UHGV virus genome: UHGV-0000037
DNA: 35,580 bases
Direction: 5' to 3' (one strand)
DNA from: a virus
The notes under the pieces are model-generated. The model ran no database searches. It was not told where the DNA came from and worked only from the letters and a program-made list of their open reading frames with translations. Positions 1 to 1,100 of this stretch are shown here, one piece after another (positions within the stretch are counted from its first letter, which is position 1; the number at the start of each line of letters is the position of its first letter). The translations under genes and the position numbers were made by a program.

Positions 1-617
1 TGAATAATGCTGCTGCAGTACTTGATCAGAATGGTATCGCTATAACTGCAGGCGATATTACCGTTTATAACTACGATGCTGAAAACCGTGAATATCTCTC
101 TGCCACTGTTGAGTATCTCGCTTATGGTGTTGGAATTCCGGCTCACTCATGCATTGACGCGCCACCAGAAAAACGCCCCGGCTTCGCTGTCTGTCGTGAT
201 ACTGACCAGAACATCTGGAAATATGTTCCAGACCACAGAGGCGAAACGGTTTACAGCACAGAGAATGGTAACGCTGTGCAAATCACACAACCGGGAGATT
301 ACCCTCCTGATACGACGGTGAAACAGCCAGCTACTATCTATGATGTCTGGGATGGTGAGATTTGGGTGACAGATACGAGACGACAGCACGCAGCAGAACT
401 GGAAGCTGCCGGAGCGCATCGTCAGCAACTTGAGGAACAGGCAATGGCATCTGTTGAGCTTATTAATCTCAAACTACGAGCCGGACGCCGATTGACGCCC
501 CAGGAGACGGAAAAACTAAACGCCGTGCTTGATTTCATAGATACGCTTAATGCGACTGACATCAGCACTGCACCGGATATCAACTGGCCGGAAATGCCTC
601 TGGCAGCAGCCAGTTGA
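1..617 (+). CDS. Tail fibre assembly protein (lambda Tfa-like), 5' end at or beyond the window edge
   Basis: Frame open from nt 3 to stop at 615-617 with no start codon inside the window. C-terminus ...RVDFIDTLNATDISTAPDINWPEMP resembles the lambda Tfa C-terminus (...VDTSTAPDIEWPAVP, from memory), as does the central DHRGETVY block. Convergent with the fibre cassettes; stop codons 6 bp apart. Confidence 0.7.
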   Translation, partial: NNAAAVLDQNGIAITAGDITVYNYDAENREYLSATVEYLAYGVGIPAHSCIDAPPEKRPGFAVCRDTDQNIWKYVPDHRGETVYSTENGNAVQITQPGDYPPDTTVKQPATIYDVWDGEIWVTDTRRQHAAELEAAGAHRQQLEEQAMASVELINLKLRAGRRLTPQETEKLNAVLDFIDTLNATDISTAPDINWPEMPLAAAS

Positions 618-623
618 GTATAA

Positions 624-1100
624 TTAAGCCGCCCTCACGATATAGTTAAATGCGATATTGCGGGGGCGAGTTTCACTACCACCAGTGTTACCAATACTCC
701 CTCGTGAATGAAGTGTCGGTGATGGGATCAGACTCCCGCCTGTACTTGTGGCATCAAGTCCCCGTCCTTGTGTATATGTTTTTTTGAAAATTGTGGCCAA
801 CTCCCATTCATCCTTTGTGTCATACCCATCGTTAGCTACAACAATATGGCGGTGTTTTTCCAGCATCCCAGTTTGAAAGCTTAATAAAGCACGTCCTGCA
901 TCAATCCCTCGCCCGTCATCCCAGCCACGAATAAACTCGCCCCGTAAATCCGGTAATTTATTGGTGGGGTAAGCCTTTGCCAGTTTGGGGTACATTTCAG
1001 AAGAAAATGCTGCGCCGTTACATTTCAGCCACCCTGCTGGCGGTGTGGCTGAGGGCCACGGAACGGGCACACCAACGGGCAGCGCTGAGCCTTCCCCCAA
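624..1100 (-). CDS. Tail-fibre C-terminal tip cassette 4 (collar-domain receptor-binding module, no ATG or RBS)
   Basis: Begins at the conserved LGEGSALPVGVPVPWPSATPP...LPDLRGEFIRGWDDGRG block (TTG in-frame) and ends ETRPRNIAFNYIVRAA-stop; middle ~60 aa unique. Confidence 0.5.
   Translation of the reverse strand: MGEGSALPVGVPVPWPSATPPAGWLKCNGAAFSSEMYPKLAKAYPTNKLPDLRGEFIRGWDDGRGIDAGRALLSFQTGMLEKHRHIVVANDGYDTKDEWELATIFKKTYTQGRGLDATSTGGSLIPSPTLHSRGSIGNTGGSETRPRNIAFNYIVRAA

Follow-up and report, generated by a model that had tools for sequence, protein, structure and literature searches.

The left end of the viral genome UHGV-0000037 raises the question of why a single chaperone gene stands there, facing a row of tail fibre sequences that run towards it. 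The window, which is the whole stretch of DNA analysed (35,580 base pairs, bp), is the entire contig CAOCQX010000001.1 (assembly GCA_948252915.1). At its very edge, a gene for a tail fibre assembly protein (Tfa) is read on the plus strand and stops a few base pairs short of the stop codon of a fibre tip cassette on the minus strand. The original prediction took this convergence for the centre of an invertible segment with asymmetric arms, and the flank recovered from the contig L004, the natural isomers and the single Tfa of each related element bear this out. The Tfa gene is very probably the inner end of one arm of a multiple DNA-inversion switch of the Min/Pin type, located at the right end of a Mu-like prophage. 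The features of the switch that lie in the window are the following (aa, amino acids).

1..617, plus strand: Tfa gene, 205 aa; PF02413; 60% identical to TfaE of the cryptic prophage e14
618..623, no strand: stop-to-stop junction, 6 bp, gtataa; the same in all related loci and in 48/48 states of the model described below
624..1103, minus strand: silent tip cassette t158, Collar; without its own start codon or promoter; reading frame entered through the crossover site
1092..1117, minus strand: crossover site s4; inner half 1092-1103, core AA/TT 1104-1105, outer half 1106-1117; breakpoint of the inversion in E. coli M114
1111..1647, minus strand: silent tip cassette t177, Collar
1636..1661, minus strand: crossover site s3
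1655..2248, minus strand: silent tip cassette t196, Collar
2237..2262, minus strand: crossover site s2
2256..3209, minus strand: currently expressed tail fibre, 317 aa; constant part (Sc) 2721-3209 and tip t153 2256-2720
2709..2734, minus strand: crossover site s1, inside the fibre gene; TTGTCAAAAACC TT GGTTTGGGGGAA, encoding ..FVKNLGLGE..; place homologous to Mu gixL
3212..3790, minus strand: gpI-type baseplate gene, PF09684 Tail_P2_I; directly upstream of the fibre

The Tfa reading frame is open on the plus strand from 3 to 617, with TGA at 615-617, and 204 of the 205 residues lie in the window. Only the A of the ATG falls outside, because window position 1 is the contig end. The protein matches Caudo_TAP (PF02413) in Pfam with E = 8.7e-26 and 91 bits (cutoff 22.1), and Caudo_TAP_N is also among its precomputed domain matches. 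The Pfam match and the TGA confirm the lambda-Tfa-type gene that had been placed on the plus strand up to position 617. No match to Tfa was obtained among the chains of the PDB, where no solved homologue is detectable by sequence. A tblastn search with Tfa against the whole window returns this single copy. The stop codon of the t158 cassette (TAA, seen as tta at 624-626) lies 6 bp from the Tfa stop, as had been claimed. Equally, no chaperone gene follows the expressed fibre in its own direction, since the next three open reading frames downstream of it are silent tip cassettes. The arm had been described as carrying four tips, and four minus-strand tips are indeed present, but they comprise one expressed tip and three silent cassettes. 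The window holds no invertase gene.

The crossover sequence TTCCCCCAAACCAASGTTT occurs four times in the window, in a single orientation, with starts at 1092, 1636, 2237 and 2709 (0.00 occurrences expected from shuffles). Each site consists of two imperfect inverted half-sites of 12 bp around a 2-bp core, an architecture that aligns with Mu gix and e14 pix. Every minus-strand tip begins at TTCCCCCAAACCAA(C/G)GTTT and all four match PF07484 (Collar) with E of about 1e-14 to 1e-15. Almost identical termini are common to all tips, with the shared C-terminal motif ...RPRNIAFNYIVRAA. Site s1 is located at codons homologous to those of the Mu fibre protein S (..NGADIPEPALFVKNLGLGE.. in the fibre and ..NGADIPNKPLFIQNLGLQE.. 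in Mu S) and, in a search of PDB sequences, fibre residues 137-167 align with Mu S residues 144-174. The expressed fibre comes directly behind the gpI and gpJ baseplate genes, and the gpI-type gene fixes the place of the switch as the end of the late tail operon.

The DNA to the left of position 1 is seen in L004, a metagenome contig of 92.9 kilobases (kb) that is 100.000% identical to window positions 1-13209 and continues past position 1. Immediately left of Tfa and on the same strand, L004 carries the tip t167 (167 aa, Collar), whose stop TAA overlaps the Tfa ATG in the sequence TAATG, with a shared A. Through this overlap Tfa is predicted to be translationally coupled to t167. The t167 cassette begins at a fifth site, AAGACGAAAACG TT GGTTTGGGGGAA, which is inverted relative to the four of the window. 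A 72-bp spacer separates this site from a divergently oriented invertase gene (13785-14357 of L004, 190 aa, Resolvase and HTH_7 domains). In this contig no damage is seen in the invertase, the five sites or any of the cassettes. The plus-strand tip and the inverted site expected to the left of the window are both present, together with the invertase, and an unrelated fibre operon or host DNA without an inverted site is excluded in this identical contig. The term orphan, applied earlier to Tfa, fits the assembly but not the biology: the gene looks solitary because the assembly breaks at the contig end, and its partner t167 lies just past it. Further left, at 14358-14435 of L004, the prophage ends 78 nucleotides (nt) after the invertase stop (...GCGCGGCGCATCA), as it does in L003, L018, L020 and L029. 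Beyond this end the host DNA is different in each genome, which indicates insertion at random by transposition, as in Mu. The invertase is the last gene, and com/mom are lacking.

The invertase (L004 protein) matches PF00239 with E = 1.7e-51 and PF02796 with E = 1.3e-13, and among PDB sequences it matches the Mu Gin structures 3UJ3/4M6F with E of about 1e-91. It is 71.6% identical to Mu Gin, 81.5% identical to e14 PinE and 95.8% identical to the invertase of the P1-like plasmid pSA186_4. The recombinase, the 26-bp sites and the inversions place the locus, on sequence grounds, among the switches of the Din-family serine DNA invertases (Gin/Cin/Pin/Hin/Min). The mechanism of the Fis-dependent serine invertases is well established (PMC3798978, PMC3575834). 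Programmed inversions of prophage tail fibre genes have also been catalogued systematically, with neighbours annotated as 'tail fiber assembly protein', 'phage tail protein I' and 'recombinase family protein' (PMC9881135).

The activity of the switch is seen in the comparison of about 20 related loci, mapped in E. coli, Salmonella and viral contigs. The prophage of E. coli M114 matches the window at 99% identity, and one inversion, between sites 4 and 5, sets the two apart: the block [t167-Tfa / t158] is flipped. Whatever the isomer, Sc keeps the outer half-site TTGTCAAAAACC and the invertase flank keeps the outer half-site AAGACGAAAACG, whereas the inner half-site and the tip change partners. 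This pattern is the mark of an exchange at the 2-bp core. The in-frame fusions predicted for the silent cassettes, Sc+t158 (322 aa), Sc+t177 (341 aa) and Sc+t196 (360 aa), are all found residue for residue in the public protein collection. The E. coli locus L029 shows Sc, t167 and Tfa in the forward direction, converging on t158, t153, t157 and t177 in the reverse direction, and then the invertase. It holds an intact Sc-t167 fibre of 331 aa with Tfa directly after it. The same Sc-t167-Tfa order is found in Salmonella (L020), but there a 2-nt insertion frameshifts the tip. The well-placed chaperone that inversion had been expected to give the fibre is thus observed in both loci, intact in the first and behind a frameshifted tip in the second. 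The t167-Tfa / t158 junction is the same in all ~20 loci of the lineage. The intact invertase, sites and cassettes, the clean core inversions and the exact fusions point to recent and repeated activity.

Two candidate statements on the Tfa-linked tip were discarded. The view that this tip is never expressed is ruled out by an intact fusion in the t167 cluster (P0162) and by the context in L029. The protein P0149/L021 was considered as a second Sc-t167 fusion and rejected, its tip being of the t155 type. A search for chimeric DNA in 5,426 E. coli genomes returned no direct Sc-t167-Tfa fusion, and the exact look-up of the Sc-t167 fusion protein in the public collection gave no match. A homology search that listed cluster representatives showed only 331-aa proteins that are 90% identical and bear a different tip, t167.1. 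Damaged fibres were also noted. In E. coli JB2 (L010 2847-3632) the t153 tip of the expressed fibre is truncated after 97 residues, and the frameshift of t167 in Salmonella OW706648.1 (L020 6001-6996) is a TT insertion. This damage could be decay or sequencing error.

The geometry of the locus can be described by a signed-reversal model, in which each site with its tip is a signed unit and reversals are allowed only between one forward and one reversed site. The number of reachable isomers is 2, 4, 12, 48 and 240 for two, three, four, five and six sites, respectively. The five units of this locus give 48 isomers, and t158 converges on Tfa in every one of them. In every state all forward units stand together ahead of all reversed ones and, consequently, there is exactly one convergence point. 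In terms of the model, the 6-bp junction is the fixed topological centre of all nested invertible segments and the sole junction in the region that the invertase would never separate. The convergent arrangement of Tfa and t158 arises because this junction is invariant under all allowed inversions. From the state of the window, one modelled inversion (s1 x s5) leads to fibre-t167-Tfa and one leads to the M114 state, and each of the three silent cassettes needs two before it is expressed. Each of the two central tips is expressed in 6/48 states and each of the other three in 12/48, so that the rarity of the Sc-t167 state needs no special cause. Tfa is co-directional with the fibre in 24/48 states.

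The switch would then operate in the following way. A serine invertase of the Gin family, encoded ~0.6 kb left of the contig end, would recombine the 26-bp sites, which are predicted to sit in frame where the constant part of the fibre meets each promoterless tip cassette. Recombination would be limited to inverted pairs of sites, and the DNA between them would flip and put a new tip behind Sc. The convergence point (t158 stop, 6 bp and Tfa stop, at 617-624) holds no site, and Tfa would travel as a fixed unit with its upstream tip t167. Inversion between s1 and s5 would produce the fibre-t167 fusion, with Tfa immediately after.

The remaining question is which tips the single Tfa serves. Every related element examined that carries Tfa has exactly one, for 2-9 tips. 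The locus L019 has a fibre but no Tfa, and its cassettes and invertase are also lost. The tip that precedes Tfa is t167 in this lineage, t152 in L018 and pSA186_4, a StfE-type tip in e14 and another type in KP12_2, a clone of the Klebsiella phage KP12. The Tfa of L018 and pSA186_4 is 60-62% identical to that of the window. The Tfa variant co-varies with the upstream tip (t167-Tfa1, t152-Tfa2), in both the Mu-like and the P1-like element, the linkage between tip and Tfa is unbroken in all loci and no site lies between t167 and Tfa. The co-variation and the absence of a site between the two therefore suggest that tip and Tfa form cognate pairs. For t167 and Tfa, the TAATG overlap, the lack of an intervening site, the intact Tfa reading frame and the precedent of StfE-TfaE in e14 all argue for such a pairing. 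The Tfa reading frame is intact at every locus, with a ratio of nonsynonymous to synonymous substitution rates (dN/dS) of 0.15-0.5, which rests on too few substitutions to indicate more than consistency with constraint.

The favoured reading is that Tfa would serve t167 alone, as its cognate chaperone or as a partner bound to the tip, and that the other Collar tips would assemble without Tfa. The Tfa proteins of Mu and lambda are reported as a tip-bound accessory or adhesin. Tfa proteins are described as built of modules: the N-terminal domain varies and binds the fibre, the C-terminal one is conserved and trimerises, and some of the proteins stay on the virion (PMC9608196). It is a tentative suggestion, put forward with more doubt than conviction, that the locus holds either two assembly modes in one switch, with most tips free of Tfa and the Tfa of the central tip acting more as a tip-bound accessory or adhesin than as an obligatory foldase, or one Tfa that serves all tips by way of the termini they share. 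If this were true, the pairing of one chaperone with many interchangeable tips would be a design rule unseen in Mu, P1 and e14, of practical value when fibres or tailocins are to be engineered with no cognate chaperone.

The tips also differ in a HxH motif placed just after the collar region. It reads HRH in t158 and t177, HIH in t167, HSH in t143 and HYH in t152, and it is absent from t153, t157, t155, t168, t142 and t196. The presence of the motif does not correlate with Tfa linkage. It resembles the metal-binding histidine motifs of T4 gp37 and gp12. A further repeat, an inverted match of 14-16 nt (ACAGGCACACCAACAG / CTGTTGGTGTGCCGGT), connects 2963-2978 in Sc with 1063-1076, 2208-2223 and 2680-2695 in the conserved cassette starts. 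It is probably a coding coincidence (..PVGVP.. vs ..TGTPT..).

Several observations weigh against the proposed switch and the pairing of Tfa with t167. The tip t167.1, which is 74-75% identical to t167 in the variable region, occurs without Tfa in L018, L019 and pSA186_4, and a StfE-like cassette (73% identical in the variable region) occurs without Tfa elsewhere. One Tfa is kept whichever tip precedes it, and a generic or dispensable Tfa would also fit. In the invertase gene, one Fis-like 15-mer is kept with Mu gin at nt 94, but the second site and the spacing are ambiguous: the centres of the Fis-like motifs are 37 nt apart, against 35 or 46 nt in Mu, where two downstream motifs are possible. 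The left flank is taken from an identical contig of another sample and not from the window's own assembly. Finally, the inversion is known from the comparison of near-identical prophages, not within one population or from reads.

The alternative that survives best is that a single Tfa is a generic chaperone, which would serve all Collar tips in trans through the collar N-terminus or the C-terminal ...RPRNIAFNYIVRAA and would be made in either orientation of the DNA. The presence of one Tfa per element for 2-9 tips, its position behind different tip types (t167, t152, StfE-type and KP12 type) with near-homologous tips free of Tfa elsewhere, and the almost identical termini of all tips are consistent with this. 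However, Tfa lies antisense to the late operon in 24/48 model states, as it does in most observed loci, and the 6-bp convergent junction leaves no space for independent signals. No sigma-70-like promoter was found facing the segment from the invertase side, with 1 match elsewhere against 2.9 expected, in a weak scan that leaves Mu-type late promoters outside its reach. The co-variation of the Tfa variants with the upstream tip and the L019 fibre without any Tfa also argue against it. A generic chaperone is therefore considered unlikely.

Much less likely still is a frozen arrangement, in which the cassettes and Tfa are left from past duplications, the switch is inactive in this prophage and the layout is simply inherited. 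Decayed relatives do exist, as the L010 fibre is truncated, t167 of L020 is frameshifted and L019 is devoid of cassettes, Tfa and invertase; moreover, the evidence for inversion comes from other prophages and not from reads of this sample. On the other hand, the identical contig L004 has an intact invertase, five sites and all cassettes, the 99%-identical prophages differ only by clean core inversions and the exact predicted fusions exist. The accidental convergence of a Tfa from a separate fibre operon or an adjacent element was plausible only before the left flank was seen and is now barely conceivable, given that the t167-Tfa / t158 junction is conserved in ~20 loci of the lineage and that the prophage ends 78 nt past the invertase, with host DNA that differs per genome.

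The multiple-inversion switch thus remains the preferred reading. With it, the odd convergent 'orphan' chaperone is explained by the truncation of the contig and the topology of the nested inversions. A Mu-like transposable prophage that is widespread in E. coli and Salmonella is thereby seen to carry at its right end a Pin/Min-type module, common to P1-like phage-plasmids, that would offer it five host-range variants and 48 isomers. Collar-type tips are attractive for the retargeting of phages and tailocins, and the practical question is their assembly without a cognate Tfa.

The element that carries the switch is a Mu-like transposable prophage, with a rve transposase, an AAA_22 MuB-like ATPase, Gam, GemA, Mor and a P2-like tail module. 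The switch and the invertase are located at its extreme right end, as in Mu. The early region (27501-35580, plus strand) encodes a DUF3102 protein, the rve transposase, the AAA_22 ATPase, Gam, GemA and Mor and is transcribed away from the minus-strand late genes, a divergent layout that resembles BcepMu rather than Mu. Two relatives (L001 12590-13465 and L009 8679-9554) have an extra gene of 876 nt, with a PD-(D/E)XK nuclease domain, between gpV and gpW. This gene is missing from the window, where the gpV-gpW interval (~5225-5280) is short, and the slot may be a site for moron or defence cargo. The Tfa protein cluster also includes Salmonella fragments of 54-55 aa annotated as 'IS200/IS605 family transposase, partial' (P0167, P0170, P0171; ~1000 contigs), which hints either at an IS200 that interrupts or abuts Tfa in prophages of the S. 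Typhi type or at an annotation error. Both ends of the window contig fall exactly on stop codons, the left one just after the t167 TAA and the right one on the TAA of a mor-like gene. The last ~43 nt (35538-35580) differ from the relatives, which carry ~190 nt more phage DNA ending ...TCTAATCA. No exact repeat accounts for either contig break.

Among the known systems, the R64-type shufflon (pilV, Rci) follows a similar logic. It also uses several cassettes, nested inversions and alternative C-termini of one adhesin, but it depends on a tyrosine recombinase, has other sites and targets a pilus adhesin, and it does not belong to this family. The G segment of Mu with Gin (and the C segment of P1 with Cin) shares the order of fibre, invertible segment and invertase at the right end of the transposable phage. 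The Mu gix site, TTATCCAAAACC TC GGTTTACAGGAA, lies at homologous codons (..NGADIP..LF[IV][QK]NLGL..) and its core is TC instead of TT. The chaperone follows the variable part in Mu as well. However, Mu has two sites in the symmetric arrangement Sv-U / U'-S'v and non-Collar tips, and U and U' are just 23-26% identical to Tfa. The Mu layout, with a chaperone on each arm and both converging, is not found here: one Tfa is present and the other arm ends in a tip cassette. In Mu, com/mom follow gin, whereas here the phage end directly follows the invertase. The clone KP12_2 (L022 24-2851) has a fibre-tip, Tfa (39% identical), one reversed tip and an invertase (68%). With two sites and a single Tfa, it presents the one-chaperone asymmetry already in the simplest form.

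The closest relatives are the Pin system of e14 (stfE-tfaE) and the Min system of p15B. In e14, the P segment of the cryptic prophage of E. coli K-12 has the order stfP-tfaP / tfaE-stfE with pinE. The e14 pix site, CTCTCGAAAACC TT GGTTTGGGAGAA, is nearly identical to the sites of this locus and has the same TT core. StfE resembles the tips described here, since it is of the Collar type, has the frame GLGEGSALPVGVPVPWPS...RPRNIAFNYIVRAA and is followed by TfaE. In both loci the invertase gene is placed just outside the segment. In e14 the sites, tips and chaperones number two each, with a chaperone on either arm, whereas this locus has five sites, five tips and one chaperone, in a Mu-like transposable phage instead of e14. 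For p15B Min, Sandmeier et al. are said to have counted 240 isomers in 1990, the number that the model gives for six sites. This system and the P1-like phage-plasmids share with the locus several sites, overlapping invertible segments and alternative 3' ends of one fibre gene; p15B Min is cited in PMC6906374 and PMC5903667. The plasmid pSA186_4 encodes an 803-aa fibre that ends in t152, followed by Tfa, eight reversed Collar cassettes and the closely related invertase. In the variable region, several of these cassettes share 95-100% identity with t153, t158 and t167.1. The constant part of the fibre is different (317-aa fibre against 803 aa) and the element is a Mu-like prophage, not a plasmid. 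With five sites and five tips, the locus has the more than two sites and the several alternative fibre 3' ends that characterise the Min type. It is a Pin/Min-type multiple-inversion switch of host range, a principle known since the 1980s-90s, and here it resides in a Mu-like prophage.

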